Source: an uncultured delta proteobacterium
GTDB taxonomy: Bacteria > Desulfobacterota > Syntrophorhabdia > Syntrophorhabdales > WCHB1-27
DNA length: 64,000 nucleotides
Reading direction: 5' to 3'
NCBI GenBank assembly: GCA_963825005.1
Contig: CAWGRP010000007.1
Span: forward strand, 104,045-168,044
Shown here: one piece after another, positions 11,898 through 55,943 of the stretch
Layout of the letters: each line of letters opens with the position of its first letter
How positions within the stretch are numbered: position 1 is the stretch's first letter
The notes under the pieces: generated by a model
Told to the model about the DNA's origin: nothing
What the model saw: only the letters and a program-made list of their open reading frames with translations
Database searches by the model: none
Translations under genes and position numbers: made by a program

Positions 11898-12042
11898 TGC
11901 TAATTTGCAGTCAAGATGGACGACCCAGCCTTCGGCCGGGTACCCCGGGCGGCAGCGAGGAGCTTGCCGGAGGCGTACTATAGTACGTCGAGGAAAAGCG
12001 ACGCAGCGACAACGAAGGTATCCGCTTGAATGCGAATTAGCA
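11898..12042 (+). mobile_element. family-A MITE-like element, copy A3 (long subtype)
   Basis: TIRs TGCTAATTTGCAGTCAAG / CTTGAATGCGAATTAGCA, flanked by TTA 11895-11897 and TTA 12043-12045. Central palindrome GTACTATAGTAC. Confidence 0.8.
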
Positions 12043-12588
12043 TTAGAACCAGTAAGCCGGGTATCGCCTCTTTCCGGAAAGGTTATTGGTAATGAGCCCA
12101 ACCGCAAGGAGGATGGCTACGCCCAGTGCGACAGGCACCAGCACGTACAGGAAGCCCAGATCATGCACGGCCTTACCCCCGATCACGGCGGTCATGGCGC
12201 TGGCGCCGCCCGGAGGGTGTACGGTCCTGGTGAGAAGCATTGCCATCACTGAAAGCGAGACTGCGATCGTAGCAGTCAGCCAGATATCAATACCGAGCAC
12301 TCTATGGCAGGCTGCTCCAATAAACGCCGATATGACGTGGCCGCCCATCACGTTCCTCGGCTGGGAAAAAGGACTTGCCACCACGCCGTAAACCAGCACT
12401 GCAGAAGCGCCGAGAGAGCCCAGCATCAAGCTGAGCGACCGCGGTTCCAGGTAGCATGCGGAAACCAACCCGCACATGCCGGTCCCGACCAAGGCACCGA
12501 GACCCGACCAGAGAATCTCTCTGAGGGGAACCCTGGGTGGGCCCTCGGCGCCGCCTTTCATTTTTGAGAGATATTCCTTGAAATTCAC
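12043..12588 (-). CDS. HPP family membrane protein
   Basis: 181 aa, multi-TM, with the diagnostic HPPGGA motif. GTG start overlaps the upstream CBS stop (GTGA). Confidence 0.85.
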   Translation of the reverse strand: MNFKEYLSKMKGGAEGPPRVPLREILWSGLGALVGTGMCGLVSACYLEPRSLSLMLGSLGASAVLVYGVVASPFSQPRNVMGGHVISAFIGAACHRVLGIDIWLTATIAVSLSVMAMLLTRTVHPPGGASAMTAVIGGKAVHDLGFLYVLVPVALGVAILLAVGLITNNLSGKRRYPAYWF

Positions 12589-27733: not shown

Positions 27734-28024
27734 ATGAATAGAAGGCTTTCAACGCTAAAAATCTTTTCGATTCTCTTTATCAGTCTGTTACTCATGGCTA
27801 TATCCGGGGTCCACTCATCTCTCGTCGCCGAGGACGATATCAGCGTGACCAGGGACGATGACAAGACAGTCTATTCAATTGATGGCGGAGATGACGCCAG
27901 AAGACAACAGGAAAGAGAGAGGGACCAGGCCATCGATATGCTCAAGAACATGCCTGTCATAATCGATGGCAGGAGAGGTCAACCCCTGCCGCCCAGGCCC
28001 GTGCAGCCCACACCGGGCAACTAA
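27734..28024 (+). CDS. small secreted hypothetical protein
   Basis: 96 aa with signal peptide (LKIFSILFISLLLMAISGV), acidic then Pro-rich tail. GAAGGTG RBS. Its TAA is the target duplication of repeat A4. Confidence 0.55.
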   Translation: MNRRLSTLKIFSILFISLLLMAISGVHSSLVAEDDISVTRDDDKTVYSIDGGDDARRQQERERDQAIDMLKNMPVIIDGRRGQPLPPRPVQPTPGN

Positions 28025-28148
28025 TACCGATTTGCCTTCAAGTGTATACCTTCGTTGTCGCTACGTCGCTCTCCTCGACGTACCCCAAGGTACGCCTTCG
28101 TCGGCTCCTCGCTGCCGCCTCGCTCTCCATCTTGAATGCAAATCGGTA
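28025..28148 (-). mobile_element. family-A MITE-like element, copy A4 (short subtype)
   Basis: TIRs TACCGATTTGCCTTCAAG / CTTGAATGCAAATCGGTA, flanked by TAA 28022-28024 and TAA 28149-28151. Confidence 0.85.
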
Positions 28149-28181
28149 TAAGCATAGCTGTTTGAATTCTCTCTGGCCTCC

Positions 28182-29354: not shown

Positions 29355-29504
29355 CAGCGGTTTGCATTCAAGATGGATGACCCAGCCGCCGGCCGGGTGC
29401 CCCAGGCGCGCCGAGGGCTCACGCAGCGGAGGCGTACCTTGGGGTACGTTGACGCGGAACAGGCCGAAGGGCAACGAAGGTAGGCGCTTGAAGGCAAACG
29501 GCAG
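29355..29504 (+). mobile_element. family-A element, copy A5 (long subtype)
   Basis: CAGCGGTTTGCATTCAAGATGGATGACCCAGCC...GGAGGCGTACCTTGGGGTACGTTGACG...GGGCAACGAAGGTAGGCGCTTGAAGGCAAACGGCAG. Confidence 0.75.
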
Positions 29505-29630
29505 CCGGTTTGGATTCAAGATGATTACCGAGGCGCGCCGAGGGCTGGGCAGCGGAGGCGTACCTTGGTGTACGTTGACGCGGAACAGGCCGAAGGGCAA
29601 CGAAGGTAGGCGCTTGAAGGCAAACCGGTG
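29505..29630 (+). mobile_element. family-A element, copy A6 (tandem to A5, internally shortened)
   Basis: CCGGTTTGGATTCAAGATGA...GGAGGCGTACCTTGGTGTACGTTGACG...CTTGAAGGCAAACCGGTG. It ends one base before the TTA (TAA on the minus strand) stop of 29631..30287. Confidence 0.75.
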
Positions 29631-30287
29631 TTACTTCGCGCTTCGCGGAAGGATTGCTATCTCTCCATAATCCCCGACTGCACGGGAATTGGTATTGTCT
29701 GCATCGGTCAGAATGCCGATCCCGATTGCATTCGGATTTTTCTTTTTCCCAAAGAAGCGCTCATAGTCAGAAAGCACATCGCGTTCTTCCGTGAGCCAGG
29801 TGCCGGCCTGCGCTCTCCCGCTGCGAATGACGATCATCTTTGAGCCGCTTGAAAAAGGAGAATCGAAGGCGGCTCCCACCGGCTGCGTGTCGCTCCATAT
29901 GTACTTGATAGATTTAACGAACGGGAGACCGCTCAGTACCACGTAGAGGCCGAGAACGCTGTCGTTCCCTTTTTTTATCCGCTCGTCTGACCCTTCGGGA
30001 AACGTGACGGCTCTCCACTGCCAACGCAGCATCGGATACTCACTCAGGTCCCATTTCTTCTCGTAACTGATCTGCACCGACAGGCCACGCGCGTCAGCGT
30101 GGAGAAACTTCTTTTCACCCTCGGCCTGCACCGAATAAACCTTTGCGGCCTCTTCCTGATCTTTCGCTCTCCAATTCGACGGAAATTTTCCGACCTCATT
30201 CTGCTCGAACGTCACCTGAATGGGCTGTTGGGCAAAGAGGGTATGTGCCATAAAAACGATAAAAAGAGCAGCAAGTATAGGTTTCAT
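29631..30287 (-). CDS. secreted DUF3047 domain protein
   Basis: Signal peptide MKPILAALFIVFMAHTLFA. The blocks LRWQWRAVTFPEG...GNDSVLGLYVV...YIWS...ILTDADNTNSRAVGDYGEI match my recollection of DUF3047. Confidence 0.7.
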   Translation of the reverse strand: MKPILAALFIVFMAHTLFAQQPIQVTFEQNEVGKFPSNWRAKDQEEAAKVYSVQAEGEKKFLHADARGLSVQISYEKKWDLSEYPMLRWQWRAVTFPEGSDERIKKGNDSVLGLYVVLSGLPFVKSIKYIWSDTQPVGAAFDSPFSSGSKMIVIRSGRAQAGTWLTEERDVLSDYERFFGKKKNPNAIGIGILTDADNTNSRAVGDYGEIAILPRSAK

Positions 30288-31649: not shown

Positions 31650-31688
31650 GCTTCCGTCCTGTTCATCTATATTGTTATTTAAAAGTCC

Positions 31689-31932
31689 AGACAAGGCTTT
31701 TTCATCGCCGATAAAAGCTGATAAGGGCTATGATGAACGCCGATAAGATATTTTGACCGCCTGTGTGATACAGCGCCACAGCCGGTCAACCCCGATCCGC
31801 TTCGCGGACGGTGATACTCTCGCGGGAGCGACGGGGTGTGGACAGCATTGATGTTGTATCAGAATGCTGTCCACCGGCAAACCCATCTGCGTACATCTCT
31901 CTTTGCTCTTATCTGCGTACATCTGCGATAAA
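31689..31932 (-). mobile_element. family-B structured element, copy B1
   Basis: The reverse complement starts TTTATCGCAGATGTACGCAGATAAGAGC and ends TTTATCGGCGATGAAAAAGCCTTGTCT. It contains the hairpin GTGGACAGCATT...AATGCTGTCCAC and the hairpin GACCGGCTGTG...CACAGGCGGTC. Confidence 0.8.
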
Positions 31933-32032
31933 TTCTTCTTTTCAGGCCCTTAATCTTATCACAACCTGCCGATGCTTCTCATATTGATCAGACGGAAGGG
32001 CCGTAAAGCGCACAACCAGCTTTCTCAATTGC

Positions 32033-35102: not shown

Positions 35103-35124
35103 TGAGCCGAAGCGACAAAGAATC

Positions 35125-35363
35125 TTTATCGCAGATGTGCGCAGATAGAAGCCAAGAGAGATATACGCAGATGGCGTTTGACCGTGTCCAGCATTGTGAT
35201 ACAACGTCAATGCTGGACACACTCCGTCGCTCCCGCGAGAGTATCACCGTCCGCGAAGCGGATCAGGGTTGACCGGCTGTGCCGCTCTATCGCACAGGCG
35301 GTCAAAGATAAACTATCCGCGCTTATCGTAGTAGCCCTTATCCGTCTTGATCTGCGATGAAAA
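35125..35363 (+). mobile_element. family-B structured element, copy B2
   Basis: Starts TTTATCGCAGATGTGCGCAGATAGAAGCC. Contains the 13-bp hairpin 35184-35220 and the hairpin 35271-35303. Ends CCCTTATCCGTCTTGATCTGCGATGAAAA. Confidence 0.8.
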
Positions 35364-35400
35364 TTCTTTGTTTTGGCGTCTGTAGGAACAGGAGTGAGCA

Positions 35401-37182
35401 GTGAACGGAGCAGAGCTTCTGGTTGGAACCGCCCGCGCACTCGGTATTGACGTCTGTTTTGCGAACGCGGGCACAACCGAAATACCGATCGTAATGGCGC
35501 TTGATACAGTGAAGGGGATCAGGGCTATCCTCGGGATCTTTGAAGGTGTCTGCACAGGCGCTGCAGACGGATACGGACGGATGACCGGCAGACCGGCCAT
35601 GGCACTTCTGCATCTGGGTCCGGGATTTGCGAACGGCATCGCAAACTTGCACGACGCGCGAAGAGCTGCTACGCCTCTCGTCAATGTTATCGGTCAGCAT
35701 GCTACATGGCACCAGAGCGCAGATCCACCACTCGCGATGGACATCGAGAGCCTGGCCCGCACCGTGTCGGGTTGGGTGCGGACGAGCACATCGGTGGAGA
35801 AACTTTCCAGAGATATGAACGATGCGATCAACGCATCTCTTTTTGGACAGGTGTCGAGTCTCATTGTCCCCCATGATCTTCAACTGGCTGACGCCATGGA
35901 CAACGGTATAGACCTCACGCCTTTCTCGTTCGCGCCGGTCAATGCAGATGTGATCGATAAGGCGGCACGACGGATTCGGGCGGCACAAAAATCGGCATTG
36001 CTTCTCGACGGAAGGGCGCTGAGCAAACCCGGCCTGCACGCTGCTTCACGCATAAGAACGAAATGCAAGTGCAACCTTTTTGCACCTTCCTTTTTTTCCT
36101 GCATGGAACGCGGTGTGGGTTTGCCGGACGTGCAGCGCATCCCCTATTTTCCTGAAGAGGCTATATCTCTTTTGTCCGGCTATGATCTTGTAGTGATAGT
36201 CAATGCGCACGAGCCGGTGACCTTTTTTGGTTATCCCGGTGTTCGGGGTCATATCTTGAGTGACCAACAGCAGAAGCTCTATCTGTGTGAAGGAAGAGAA
36301 GATCCGGTTGAGGCACTTGCTGCCCTCGCCGACGCGCTCGATGCTCCGACCTCACCTGTTCCTGAGAGACCTTCGCCCCGCGCAGCGCTTCCTCATGGCG
36401 CGCTCACAGCAGAGAAGGCTTGTCTCACGGTTGCAGCCATCCAGCCGGAACAGGCAATCATTGTGGATGAGGGGATCACCAGCGGTTTTACTTTTTATCC
36501 GCTCACCGCATTCTCTCCCCCGCACACGTTCCTGACTATCGCGGGAGGTTCAATCGGATACGGGATGCCGTGTGCTACAGGTGCTGCCATTGCGTGCCCT
36601 GATCGCCCCGTGATCAATTTTCAGGCAGACGGAAGCGCCCTGTATACAGCCCAGGCCCTCTGGACACAGGCAAGGGAAGGATTGCACGTCATCACTTTAA
36701 TCTGCTCCAACAGGAGCTATAATATTCTCAAGCTGGAGCTTTCCCGTGCAGGCCTTACATCCTTTGGAGATAATGCCAGGAACCTGACAGAGCTGGATGC
36801 TCCCCCCATCGATTGGATCAGCCTTGCGCGGGGCTTTGGTGTGCCTGCCACGTCCGTCGATACTGCGGAGCGACTTGCGCAGGAGCTGGCCGCAGGTGTG
36901 GCAGAGCCCGGCCCGAGGCTCATCGAGATGGTACTGCATGTAAGACGATTTTTATCGCAGATGTACGCAGATAAGGACGAAGAGAGATGTACGCAGATGA
37001 GTTTGACCGTGTCCAGCATCGCGATACTGCGGCAATGCTGGACACAATTCAGTCGCTCCGCGCAAGGGTGTCACCGTCCGCGAAGCGGCTGCGGGTTGAC
37101 CGGCTGTGGCGCTGTATCACACAGGCGGTCAAAAATTGTATCGGCGTTTATCGTAGCCCTTATCAGCTTTTATCGGCGATGA
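35401..37182 (+). CDS. thiamine pyrophosphate-dependent enzyme (acetolactate synthase large-subunit-like), with its 3' end running into repeat B3
   Basis: N-terminal TPP-pyrimidine domain and C-terminal GGSIGYGMP...QADGSALY...N TPP motif. A family-typical end (...PGPRLIEMVL) is reached near 36935, but the frame stays open for ~77 further codons inside B3. Confidence 0.8.
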   Translation: MNGAELLVGTARALGIDVCFANAGTTEIPIVMALDTVKGIRAILGIFEGVCTGAADGYGRMTGRPAMALLHLGPGFANGIANLHDARRAATPLVNVIGQHATWHQSADPPLAMDIESLARTVSGWVRTSTSVEKLSRDMNDAINASLFGQVSSLIVPHDLQLADAMDNGIDLTPFSFAPVNADVIDKAARRIRAAQKSALLLDGRALSKPGLHAASRIRTKCKCNLFAPSFFSCMERGVGLPDVQRIPYFPEEAISLLSGYDLVVIVNAHEPVTFFGYPGVRGHILSDQQQKLYLCEGREDPVEALAALADALDAPTSPVPERPSPRAALPHGALTAEKACLTVAAIQPEQAIIVDEGITSGFTFYPLTAFSPPHTFLTIAGGSIGYGMPCATGAAIACPDRPVINFQADGSALYTAQALWTQAREGLHVITLICSNRSYNILKLELSRAGLTSFGDNARNLTELDAPPIDWISLARGFGVPATSVDTAERLAQELAAGVAEPGPRLIEMVLHVRRFLSQMYADKDEERCTQMSLTVSSIAILRQCWTQFSRSAQGCHRPRSGCGLTGCGAVSHRRSKIVSAFIVALISFYRR

Positions 37183-37195
37183 AAAAGCCTTGTCT
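36951..37195 (+). mobile_element. family-B structured element, copy B3
   Basis: Starts TTTATCGCAGATGTACGCAGATAAGGACG and ends TTTATCGGCGATGAAAAAGCCTTGTCT. Same hairpins as B2. Confidence 0.8.
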
Positions 37196-37264
37196 TGAGA
37201 AGCGGGTGGTGACTGACAGTTGTCGCAAAGTTTACATAACTCCATAGCGACATTGGAGGAGAAG

Positions 37265-38797: not shown

Positions 38798-39010
38798 CAC
38801 CACTCTCCGGATCTTTCTGCCCACGCTGTACAGCACTGAATCAAAAGATGGCGAGCACTGCCTGCGCGCAGGAACCAAGGCTTCGGCATCCGGCCTCATT
38901 TACAAAGGCACTTTTAATGTTTATGAATATTCCAAGGTGCGATGGAGATAGAAGACAGACAATATTTACGAAAAGGCTGACGGATGGGACGTCCGACTCG
39001 AGAATAAGAT

Positions 39011-39262
39011 CTTATCGCCGATGTACGCAGATAAAGGCCAAGAGAGATATACGCAGATGAGTTTGCCTGTGGACAGCATTGTGATACAGCGTCAATGCTG
39101 TTCATCCACCCGCACGCGGGTACCCGGTCGCTCCCGCGAGACTATCACCGTCCGCGAAGCGGATCGGGGTTGAACGGCTGTGCCGCTCTATCGCACAGGC
39201 GGTCAAAGATAAACTATCCGCTCTTATCGTAGTAGCCCTTATCCGCTTTAATCTGCGATAAA
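39011..39262 (+). mobile_element. family-B structured element, copy B4 (with extra internal hairpin)
   Basis: Starts CTTATCGCCGATGTACGCAGATAAAGGCC and ends CCCTTATCCGCTTTAATCTGCGATAAA. The hairpin-1 3' arm carries a 4-nt bulge, and an inserted ACCCGCACGCGGGT hairpin follows. Confidence 0.8.
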
Positions 39263-39285
39263 GGGGCTCTGAGGCAAGAGGGTAT

Positions 39286-48652: not shown

Positions 48653-49954
48653 TCACTTATAAAACAAACTTGGTAGAAATGTTGCAATCTGTGGGAAGAT
48701 AAAGAGAAGTATCCCGCAGACCACAAGCGAAGCCAGGAACGGATAGACACCGCTGTAAACAACTCCTATGGGAACCTTCGTGATGTTCTTGACGACGAAC
48801 ACATTTATTGCGACCGGCGGAATGACAACGCCGATCATGACTGTAACGGAGATCATCATGCCGAACCAGAGGGGATCATAGCCAAGCTTCAACACCGCAG
48901 GATAGAAAACGGGCGTGGCCAGAATCATGAAGGCAAGATCATCAATGAAAGATCCTCCAATAAGATAGATGAGGGTAATGAAAAACATAATGAGTGAACG
49001 GTGAACGGGCAATTGCACGACCCAGTCAGATACGAGCATCGGTATTTTCGTTACCGCGAGAAAATGGCCCAGGACTGCGGAGCCCGCCAGGAGCAAAAGG
49101 ACCATGGTGGCCGTGACCAGGCTTTCCATTACGGATTGCGCCGTTTTCGTGATATTGATGTCTCTTTTGGCAAAGGAGAGCACGATAACGGCGAATGTTC
49201 CAACGCTTCCGGCTTCGGTCGGGGTGAAAAAGCCTTCCAGTAGTCCGCCGATAATGATCAGGAAAATGATGATCGGCCAGATGACCTCGGGGAGCGCGGA
49301 GAGCCTGGCTTTCCAGGAAAACCTCTCTCCCACGGGGCCGACTGAAGGATCAATCTTGCACCAGCCTACAATGATAAAAACGAAGAAAAGCGCAATCAGG
49401 AGTCCCGGGGCGATGCCGGCGATGAACAGCTTTCCTATCGACTGTTGGGTGATCACGCCAAAGATAATCAGGACCACGCTCGGCGGTAGCAATATCCCGA
49501 GTGTGCCGACCGTGGCAACGATCCCGGTGGACAATTTTTTGCTATAGCCAAAACGATCCATTTCTGGGACGGCGACGCTGGCAAATGTTACTGCCGTTGC
49601 AACGGTAGAGCCGGAGATTGCCTTAAAAATTGTTGCACCGGCAACAGTGGCGATCGCAAGGCCCCCTGGGATGTGGCCGATGAACTTGTGGGCCGTATCG
49701 TAAAGTCTTCGCGCGATCCCCGCATTGAATGCAACCTGGCCCATCAGAATGAAGAGCGGGACAACGGTGAGACTGTACGATTCAAATGTGTCAAAGACAT
49801 CCTTCGCCATCATATTGAATGCCGCTTCGAAGGAGACGAGATATCCGAAGCCGACGAAGCCGACCAGAATCATCGCAAAAGCTAGTTCGATTCCCGTCAA
49901 AAAAAACGCCAGCAGGACACCGAGACCCAGGATCCCAACGACGACCTCACTCAT
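48653..49954 (-). CDS. dctM: TRAP transporter large permease
   Basis: Colinear with 43315..44619. ATG 49954 overlaps the dctQ stop by 8 nt. Confidence 0.92.
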   Translation of the reverse strand: MSEVVVGILGLGVLLAFFLTGIELAFAMILVGFVGFGYLVSFEAAFNMMAKDVFDTFESYSLTVVPLFILMGQVAFNAGIARRLYDTAHKFIGHIPGGLAIATVAGATIFKAISGSTVATAVTFASVAVPEMDRFGYSKKLSTGIVATVGTLGILLPPSVVLIIFGVITQQSIGKLFIAGIAPGLLIALFFVFIIVGWCKIDPSVGPVGERFSWKARLSALPEVIWPIIIFLIIIGGLLEGFFTPTEAGSVGTFAVIVLSFAKRDINITKTAQSVMESLVTATMVLLLLAGSAVLGHFLAVTKIPMLVSDWVVQLPVHRSLIMFFITLIYLIGGSFIDDLAFMILATPVFYPAVLKLGYDPLWFGMMISVTVMIGVVIPPVAINVFVVKNITKVPIGVVYSGVYPFLASLVVCGILLFIFPQIATFLPSLFYK

Positions 49955-54643: not shown

Positions 54644-55943
54644 TGTCTCTGCGGGAATATACGGAATCATATTGCTGCTGACGCTCTTCCTGACAGGTCT
54701 CGAAATGGCCTATTGCATGATACTGGTTGGATTTCTCGGATTCACGTTTCTTATGACGTTTTCAGCGGCCTCCAGCCTGGTCATCAAGGATTTTTTTGAT
54801 AATTTCACAACCTACAGTTACACCGTGATTCCGCTCTTTATGGTGATGGGAGAGTTTGCCGCAAATTCGAATATCGCGAAACGGCTCTACATGGGGGCGC
54901 ACCGGTGGTTCGGTCACATCCCGGGCGGCCTGGCAATGACAACCGTCGTAGGGGCGACCCTCTTCAAGGCCATGTGCGGCTCAAGCCTCGCCACCGTGGG
55001 GACCTTTTCAACGCTGGCGATGCCCGAGATGGATCGTTACGGGTACAGCAAGGAACTTTCTGCAGGTACGATAGCCTCCGTCAGCACCATGGGCATGATC
55101 CTGCCTCCCTGCACCGTGCTTATCATCTATGGGCTTCAGGTCGAGCAGTCTATCGGCAGATTATTCCTCGCCGGTATTGTGCCCGCGCTCATGATTGCTT
55201 TTTTCTTTATGGCAGTTATTGCGGGCTGGGTAACCCTGAGGCCTGAGATAGCCCCCAGGGCGGAAAAAGCAGGCTGGAAAGAACGATTCGCGGTAATCCC
55301 CGAAGCATTTGTTGTTGCCATCATTTTCGGAATCGTCATCGGGGGCATGATAACCGGGTTCTTCAGCCCAACAGAGTCAGGCACCATCGGCACCGTTGCC
55401 ATTTTTTTCCTTGCTCTTGTCCGGGGAGAAGTTAACTGGGGTATGATCACAAGATCTTTTAAGGGCGCGTTGAAGACGTCTATCATGACTCTTATGCTTA
55501 TCGCCGGATCTGCTATTTTCGGCCATTTCCTTGCCATAACCGAGATACCGATGATTGCCGCAAAATGGGCCGGGGCGCTTCCTGTGCCGGGCTTCATTGT
55601 CATGATGCTGATTATTGCGATCTACCTGATAGGCGGCTCCATTATGGATGACCTGGCGTTCATGGTACTCGCCACGCCCATCTTCTTCCCGACGGCAATG
55701 CAACTCGGGTATGACCCCATCTGGTTCGGCATCCTGATCTGCGTGACGCTGATGATAGGCGGCCTCATCCCCCCGGTGGCGATTTATGTTTTTATTTTAG
55801 GGAATATCACAGGAATTCCTTTCAAGACGATCTACAAGGGAGTCGTGCCTTTCCTTTCGGCACTTATCCTGGCCCTGATCATACTCTTTGTATTTCCGCA
55901 GATTGCATTATGGCTTCCGAATCTTATGATGGGCAAGGGCTAA
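54636..55943 (+). CDS. dctM: TRAP transporter large permease
   Basis: 435 aa, colinear with the other two DctM proteins; 8-nt overlap with dctQ. Confidence 0.92.
   Translation: MSDVSAGIYGIILLLTLFLTGLEMAYCMILVGFLGFTFLMTFSAASSLVIKDFFDNFTTYSYTVIPLFMVMGEFAANSNIAKRLYMGAHRWFGHIPGGLAMTTVVGATLFKAMCGSSLATVGTFSTLAMPEMDRYGYSKELSAGTIASVSTMGMILPPCTVLIIYGLQVEQSIGRLFLAGIVPALMIAFFFMAVIAGWVTLRPEIAPRAEKAGWKERFAVIPEAFVVAIIFGIVIGGMITGFFSPTESGTIGTVAIFFLALVRGEVNWGMITRSFKGALKTSIMTLMLIAGSAIFGHFLAITEIPMIAAKWAGALPVPGFIVMMLIIAIYLIGGSIMDDLAFMVLATPIFFPTAMQLGYDPIWFGILICVTLMIGGLIPPVAIYVFILGNITGIPFKTIYKGVVPFLSALILALIILFVFPQIALWLPNLMMGKG

Follow-up and report, generated by a model that had tools for sequence, protein, structure and literature searches.

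Family-B copies in the window

The window, the whole 64,000-nt stretch analysed here, is an ordinary chromosomal region with uvrB, a uvrC-like gene, recN, NAD kinase, radC, pmbA, transporters and metabolic enzymes. The gene order at the locus is aminotransferase, cytochrome c, SDR, NUDIX, TPP, SIR2, nitroreductase and DedA. Four copies of a palindromic repeat, Family-B, were located among these genes by repeat search, MAFFT alignment and an nhmmer profile, with their limits set by extension of the inverted ends:

31685-31945, minus strand: Family-B copy c1
35114-35371, plus strand: Family-B copy c2, the copy originally noted
36940-37198, plus strand: Family-B copy c3
39000-39271, plus strand: Family-B copy c4

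Each copy was matched by the profile built from c1-c4 with an E-value of 1e-90 to 1e-95, and the same profile found no fifth copy in the 64 kb window. All four copies described in the earlier note were recovered at their places and on their strands. The copies are real, but their extents of ~240 nt were too short, because the outer inverted ends (GACAAAGAATC...ATTCTTTGT) run ~11 nt beyond the noted boundaries on each side, which gives units of 258-272 nt with a G+C content of 49-53%. The pairwise identity of c1-c4 is 81-90%, the mean column identity is 81% (MAFFT) and the flanks are unrelated. The chance expectation of the 25-mer at the 5' end is 0.00. No conserved ORF was found in the element, as all six frames are broken by stops at differing places among the copies, consistent with the lack of coding capacity reported before.

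Four copies lie inside 7.6 kb versus none in the remaining 56 kb of the window, which indicates a local process. The MAFFT alignment also revealed mosaic relations, in that c2 and c3 share one variant of hairpin 1, and c2 and c4 share one variant of the 3' half. These relationships suggest that recombination took place among the Family-B copies.

The six known copies, including two outside the window, are all intergenic and all oriented as their flanking genes. In the window, the downstream genes start at the following positions:

31649, minus strand: ATG of the aminotransferase, 35 nt from the 3' end of c1, in a divergent spacer
35401, plus strand: GTG of the TPP enzyme, 29 nt from c2, which begins 11 nt after the NUDIX stop
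37265, plus strand: ATG of SIR2, 66 nt from the 3' end of c3
39286, plus strand: ATG of the DedA/VTT gene, 14 nt from the 3' end of c4

The aminotransferase start was taken from a 385-aa orthologue in contig L120 together with the local sequence. Neither a sigma-70-like promoter nor an intrinsic terminator was predicted inside any copy, and a promoter or terminator function of the element was dropped for this reason.

Architecture of the repeat

Each Family-B copy has two inverted arms of ~60 nt around three hairpins, including an invariant GCGAAGC mini-hairpin. The whole unit is a quasi-palindrome, and its own reverse complement matches it end to end with an E-value of 1e-17 to 1e-20 (nhmmer). 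The parts of c2 are as follows:

35114-35175, plus strand: 5' arm, with the outer inverted repeat GACAAAGAATC and four boxes
35184-35220, plus strand: hairpin 1, with the stem GTGTCCAGCATTG/CAATGCTGGACAC
35227-35268, plus strand: central small hairpins, TCGC-TCCC-GCGA (4 bp) and a hairpin around GCGAAGC (35252-35258)
35269-35305, plus strand: hairpin 3, TTGACCGGCTGTG...CACAGGCGGTCAA, 12-13 bp
35306-35371, plus strand: 3' arm, the inverted image of the 5' arm, with the outer repeat ATTCTTTGT

In the 5' arm of c2, CGCAGAT was found three times near the 5' end as previously described (35130, 35140 and 35166), and GAGAGAT is the fourth box (35156). The GAT triplets of these boxes are at 35134, 35144, 35160 and 35170 with a spacing of 10/16/10, and the ATC triplets of the 3' arm are at 35315, 35325, 35340 and 35350 with a spacing of 10/15/10. 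All eight triplets are invariant in 6/6 known copies. In the consensus fold the two arms pair with each other as helices 1-4, with 90-100% of cells paired. The core terminal inverted repeat (TIR) has 18/25 matching positions and extends outward to GACAAAG/CTTTGTC. It was therefore right that the 3' end inverts the 5' end (CCCTTATC...ATCTGCGATG at 35335-35359), but the arms exceed the 25-nt TIR and carry four boxes each.

The hairpins proposed for c2 are also present. Hairpin 1, for which a stem of 12-13 bp was expected, has a 13-bp stem (35184-35196/35208-35220), the TCCGC-GAA-GCGGA hairpin is at 35250-35262, and hairpin 3 is formed by 35269-35281 and 35293-35305 with one internal G.G mismatch. 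The heptamer GCGAAGC exists in 6/6 copies; as DNA, it forms an extraordinarily stable mini-hairpin (PMC13037366).

Copy c4 contains a private insert of 16 nt (39105-39120), which forms the hairpin ACCCGC-AC-GCGGGT. The 22-mer CCACCCGCACGCGGGTACCCGG at 39105-39127 is alike at 21/22 positions to L119:1460-1481, which sits in an unrelated, repeat-rich NUDIX-TPP spacer (GGACGAY boxes) of a relative. The two 22-mers may represent a tiny shared hairpin module.

Copies outside the window

The search of metagenomes that the earlier note had called for was carried out with a conserved 20-mer, and two further copies were found, one at L124:782-1042 and one at L128:1980-2308. The identity between these two, and of each to the window copies, is 69-80%. 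Their contexts are unrelated, as the L124 copy follows a UbiD gene and the L128 copy lies between two FAD-linked oxidase genes, and both share the orientation of the flanking genes. The neighbouring proteins are labelled Syntrophorhabdales or Syntrophorhabdaceae in the source records, which places Family-B in that lineage.

The L128 copy is ~65 nt longer, because the motif CCTGTAAGGATAA occurs three times within L128:1995-2300, directly in the 5' arm and the hairpin-1 loop and inverted in the 3' arm. The family therefore accepts symmetric internal additions.

Other searches gave no copy. When genome contigs were scanned with the invariant 18-mer TCACCGTCCGCGAAGCGG, at least 118 loci were hit, and all of those listed were chance matches in G+C-rich genomes according to nhmmer. 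A composite query of the six frames of the four copies against a set of 5.8 billion proteins found no called protein lying over other copies. Neither viral contigs scanned with two arm patterns nor plasmid and phage collections searched by blastn had a match. No further copy was present in ~110 kb of relatives' DNA, or in ~44 kb of DNA from relatives of L128 (L132-L134).

Insertion at orthologous sites

Relatives of the window were found by a protein search with the TPP enzyme, namely contig L119 (93% identity) and contigs L120 and L121 (81%). All three have the same gene order as the window and no Family-B copy. The NUDIX-TPP spacer is 298 nt in the window, versus 70-129 nt of unrelated sequence in L119, L120 and L121. 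A second filled and empty pair was provided by L128 and L131, whose proteins are 96% identical and whose spacers are 390 nt and 13 nt, respectively. Because the orthologous spacers of relatives contain no copy, Family-B is an insertion rather than a conserved regulatory region. It is inserted between genes, and in two independent comparisons the orthologous sites differ in whether they contain it. The spacers of the relatives are not cleanly empty but carry other sequence, so the exact insertion junctions are unreadable.

The divergence among the window copies is 10-19%. For neutral comparison, 4-fold degenerate sites of the window and L119 are 88-92% identical. Since the mutual divergence of c1-c4 is equal to or larger than the neutral divergence from L119, these copies are not the product of a recent burst.

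Copy c3 entered the TPP-enzyme gene at its extreme end and removed the native stop codon. The reading frame continues into the element:

36940-37182, plus strand: extension of the TPP-enzyme ORF by ~80 codons, read from c3 and closed by a TGA in the c3 3' arm

The TPP ORF of the window (35401-37182) encodes 593 aa. Among the 120 matches listed, the homologues are 457-540 aa long, most of them 514-524 aa, and cover 86% of the window ORF. The last stretch homologous to L119 is ...GTACTGC, directly ahead of the native stop.

Two other differences between the window and its relatives were observed nearby. In the relatives, the TPP-SIR2 spacer contains a conserved palindrome (L119:3070-3204, L120:11546-11655 and L121:11546-11644), in which ~4 tandem 9-mers (RGTCTRTYT) are followed by a short hairpin at the centre and then by the 9-mers in inverted form, which extend into the ribosome-binding site of SIR2. 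The window has c3 and 66 nt of other sequence in its place. This palindrome and Family-B are alike in having box arrays in inverted arms, and their boxes are different. A DUF3047 gene is located between nitroreductase and DedA in L120 and L121, where the window has ~200 nt of non-coding sequence (38798-38999) followed by c4; this gene was therefore lost at or near the insertion site.

Family-B is probably a MITE-like mobile repeat

The flanks of the six copies were compared for target-site duplication. No direct repeat was found at consistent offsets, and the local alignments of left versus right flank gave p >= 0.08 for every copy, in line with the earlier statement that no clear target duplication is visible. 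Apparent similarities between the L128 flanks (left and right) and the L131 target, and between the left and right flanks of c3, were not significant after shuffling. An extension shared by c3 and L128 beyond the 3' arm (local alignment, p = 0.002) was not counted in the element, because the alignment includes a generic ribosome-binding site and start codon. Given the age of the copies, which have diverged by 10-19%, a short duplication could have decayed.

The 9-mer GAAGCGACA is located at the outer 5' edge of c2 (35114-35124), where it shares four bases with the start of the outer inverted repeat, and recurs at the empty target site L131:1310-1330. The related strings GACGAAAAGCAAGG and GACGAAGGGCAGG precede the L124 and L128 copies. 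Strings of this type at copy edges may point to a weak preference for certain targets, or may be due to chance.

Among the 37 window ORFs scanned, no transposase or integrase was found, and the TnpA, TnpB, RAYT-like and Y1-transposase families had no match. The recommended search for a protein-coding relative with the same ends was performed in the window, ~110 kb of relatives' DNA, the plasmid and phage collections and the viral contigs, and no transposase-bearing element with Family-B ends was found there.

With regard to the features that define MITEs, Family-B is non-coding and, at 258-272 nt, well within the usual size (under ~600 bp). It has terminal inverted repeats, as the arms pair in the consensus fold. 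It is dispersed and polymorphic, with copies in L124 and L128 and sites without the element in L119, L120, L121 and L131. No target-site duplication was detected at any of the six copies. Because the duplication and the cognate IS were not found, Family-B is called MITE-like rather than a proven MITE. The MITE option of the earlier note is thus strengthened by the empty spacers, the L128/L131 pair, the stop-codon loss and the unrelated contexts, while the duplication and a transposase with the same ends did not appear. Taken together, Family-B is probably a mobile palindromic repeat of MITE-like type, non-autonomous and carried by a Syntrophorhabdales-like bacterium (probability of roughly 60%), a reading based on six known copies.

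According to this reading, the eight boxes would be putative sites at which a trans-acting transposase or recombinase binds. This hypothetical enzyme would pair both arms and move the unit. The 7.6-kb cluster could have arisen by local hopping, and subsequent recombination among the copies would have produced the mosaic relationships. The insertions that survived would be those lying sense to the host transcription unit and sparing coding regions and ribosome-binding sites. The unit would be co-transcribed in operon mRNAs and fold into a large multi-hairpin structure, which may alter mRNA processing or stability in the manner of ERIC and Correia elements.

As a family, Family-B had not been described before; the kind of repeat to which it belongs is well known, and it is no new class of RNA or system. 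Its box-array arms, covarying three-hairpin core and uniform orientation are slightly unusual and still within known categories. If the MITE-like reading is correct, a repeat family is added for the poorly sampled, uncultured syntrophic lineage Syntrophorhabdales. The spacers in a conserved operon-like gene string would then turn over fast via small palindromic elements, one of which lengthened an enzyme by ~80 residues. The over-long TPP-enzyme ORF and several long intergenic gaps in the annotation would be explained by Family-B. The four phased boxes per arm and the covarying hairpins provide handles toward the mobilising enzyme and toward tests of operon mRNA processing.

Folding, covariation and a possible role as RNA

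The compensatory changes in the three hairpins and the sense orientation of 6/6 copies count against the MITE-like reading, in that a purely selfish DNA element would not require them. They hint at selection on the folded single strand. In the consensus structure of the six copies, 93.5% of cells are paired. Changes on both sides were found for 11 pairs, compared with 4.2 ± 1.5 in column shuffles (0/500 reached 11) and 2-4 in slid controls. They are mainly in hairpin 1 (helix 5, three stem pairs with compensatory changes among copies), the central hairpins (helices 7 and 8, four pairs with double changes) and hairpin 3 (helix 9, two compensatory pairs in L124). Judged by these compensatory changes, single-strand hairpin formation seems to be maintained in Family-B.

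An alternative explanation, already considered in the earlier note as a cis-acting or small RNA, is that Family-B is a structured cis-acting RNA module of intercistronic or 5'-leader type, selected for the fold of its sense strand, with dispersal being secondary. Such a module would control the processing, stability or translation of the downstream gene, and this explanation overlaps with the MITE-like one. It is consistent with the covariation described above, with the fold of c2 (-105.1 kcal/mol, z = -6.7) and with the arrangement of all six copies, which are sense to the flanking genes with their 3' ends 14-66 nt before a start codon. However, the antisense strand folds at least as well, both for c2 (-111.8 kcal/mol, z = -7.7) and for the six-sequence alignment (-76 versus -72 kcal/mol for sense). 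Over the union of the structures of both strands, 39 G.U cells versus 30 A.C cells were counted, which is no strand signature, and the assignment of a strand by these counts was dropped. The occurrence of 6/6 copies in one orientation has a p value of only ~0.03. The covariation set consists of six sequences, two of which were picked through a conserved 20-mer, and template-switch mutation in quasi-palindromes can mimic compensatory change without selection.

The genomic context also argues against this alternative, since the downstream genes are functionally unrelated and the relatives (L119, L120 and L121) manage the same genes without the element. In the Rfam search, no family reached the gathering score in the window, and only three chance-level matches, to eukaryotic snoRNA and lncRNA models, appeared at E<=10, in agreement with the earlier report of no recognisable RNA family. 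The cis-acting RNA explanation is therefore considered possible but unlikely: the covarying hairpins and uniform orientation stand in its favour, and the equal folding of the two strands and the lack of an Rfam match stand against it.

A decidedly unlikely variant is that Family-B is no passive MITE but either the paired end-module of a transposition system that is so far undescribed and makes no duplication, or a mobile, orientation-constrained RNA module. In the former case, the enzyme may read the four phased CGCAGAT boxes of each arm and use folded single-stranded DNA as its substrate, with GCGAAGC as the nucleus of the fold. In the latter case, the module may rewire the post-transcriptional control of any operon that it enters.

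Other alternative explanations

Compared with the MITE-like reading, a regulatory cassette made of DNA is very unlikely. The eight phased CGCAGAT-type boxes would then be operators for a factor such as a winged-helix response regulator binding direct repeats spaced by 10 bp, and the downstream genes would form one regulon. The 10-nt-phased direct repeats in both arms, invariant in six copies, fit this picture, as do the location of every copy just upstream of a gene start and the clustering of four copies in one 7.6 kb locus. However, the unit is missing from the same spacers in relatives of conserved gene order, it interrupts the end of a coding region (the TPP gene), no sigma-70-like promoter is predicted in any copy and the genes served are unrelated. 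The ~130 nt of internal hairpins with compensatory changes would also not be accounted for.

The earlier note also proposed a remnant of an IS200/IS605-like element. More generally, Family-B could derive from a hairpin-using single-stranded DNA transposon (an IS200/IS605-like PATE or an IS91-like end) that inserts without target duplication. The lack of a detected duplication and the stable hairpins, including the invariant GCGAAGC DNA mini-hairpin, agree with this origin. However, IS200/IS605 elements end in asymmetric subterminal hairpins and lack terminal inverted repeats, whereas Family-B has long inverted arms built from repeated boxes at its ends. No conserved short target motif, which would be 4-5 nt for an IS200/IS605 PATE, was seen beside either end. 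The orientation of the copies follows transcription rather than one direction of replication, as c1 is inverted 3.2 kb from c2, and the 37 window ORFs scanned include no TnpA, TnpB or RAYT-like gene. This derivation is not favoured and is regarded as most unlikely.

It is extremely improbable that the units are recombination sites bounding gene cassettes (integron attC-like or similar): four similar palindromic units do separate blocks of 1-3 unrelated genes in 7.6 kb, but the window genes are not cassettes because three relatives keep the same genes in the same order without the units, c1 lies in the opposite orientation to the other three units, attC sites are only about half as long and no integrase is among the 37 window ORFs scanned. 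Retron, HEARO/omega-RNA and bridge-RNA-like readings were rejected, as the downstream genes are ordinary metabolic genes and there was no Rfam match.

Comparison with known repeat elements

Known bacterial MITEs share with the MITE-like Family-B the same size range, a position between genes or in operons, and RNA folds of very high stability (PMC3184786; PMC10969869). Among described elements, the MITE Chunjie from Geobacter uraniireducens Rf4 (Chen et al. 2008, summarised in PMC3184786 and PMC10969869) is the closest in host group, size, fold energy and location in operons. In these summaries, Chunjie is 178-235 bp long with a delta-G of -98 to -130 kcal/mol (PMC3184786; PMC10969869), similar in size class to the 258-272 nt of Family-B and in fold energy to c2 (-105 kcal/mol). 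As summarised, both have terminal inverted repeats and lie in intergenic spacers and inside operons, which they leave unbroken, and the host of Chunjie also belongs to the former Deltaproteobacteria. Compared by description only, they differ in composition and ends, as Chunjie is A+T rich with 21-bp TIRs and 9-bp direct repeats (PMC3184786), whereas Family-B has ~49-53% G+C, four-box arms of ~60 nt and no detected duplication.

ERIC and Correia/NEMIS elements are likewise imperfect palindromes, restricted to transcribed intergenic regions, often just upstream of genes, with insertion polymorphism between related genomes and occasional in-frame extension of neighbouring ORFs. They are shorter (~127 bp for ERIC and ~100-200 bp for Correia) and form simple hairpins, whereas Family-B has a three-hairpin core and boxed arms. 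ERIC and Correia elements have TA duplications, number in the tens to hundreds and are found in both orientations, in contrast to the six known copies of Family-B in a single orientation without target duplication. They are co-transcribed, and the fate of the mRNA can be altered through RNase III or RNase E cleavage (PMC10969869).

The arms of Family-B have an architectural likeness, and only that, to the ends of larger transposons. The ends of Tn7, Mu and IS21 each contain several direct repeats of one transposase-binding box. Both types of end have a repeated short box, inverted between the two ends and helically phased. In contrast to the Tn7, Mu and IS21 ends, Family-B is without 5'-TG...CA-3' termini, its boxes are 7-9 nt rather than ~20 nt, it is without a 5-bp or other duplication and no cognate transposase was found.

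REP, BIME and REPIN sequences, mobilised by RAYT, resemble Family-B as intergenic palindromes without target duplication; they are co-transcribed and can stabilise mRNA, as Family-B may be and do. REP units are numerous, RAYT-associated single hairpins of 20-40 nt, whereas the 260-nt composite unit of Family-B combines repeated boxes with three internal hairpins, which sets it apart from REPIN-RAYT systems. It is also set apart from IS200/IS605 PATEs by its long inverted arms with no conserved flanking motif, and from integron attC sites by the conserved gene order, the inverted c1 and the lack of an integrase among the 37 ORFs scanned.

Other repeats and paralogues in the window

A second, unrelated repeat family, presumably the one named Family-A earlier, is present in the window, with inverted ends of the type TATACCGATTCGCAATCAAG...CGATTGATGGCGAATCGGTATTA:

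1238-1472: Family-A
11995-12046: Family-A
28019-28151: Family-A
29372-29633: Family-A, with a 126-nt tandem duplication at 29423-29625 (99% identical)

The presence of Family-A beside Family-B indicates that the genome contains more than one MITE-like family. The adjacent ORFs 147-1214 and 1372-2601 (355 and 409 aa) are paralogous, with 76-88% DNA identity over ~1.1 kb, and have no Pfam match at E<=1e-5. An inverted repeat at 48780-48970 and 55620-55810 is 71% complementary over 191 nt. It lies in two opposite-strand DctM (TRAP transporter) genes, and is paralogous coding sequence rather than a mobile element.
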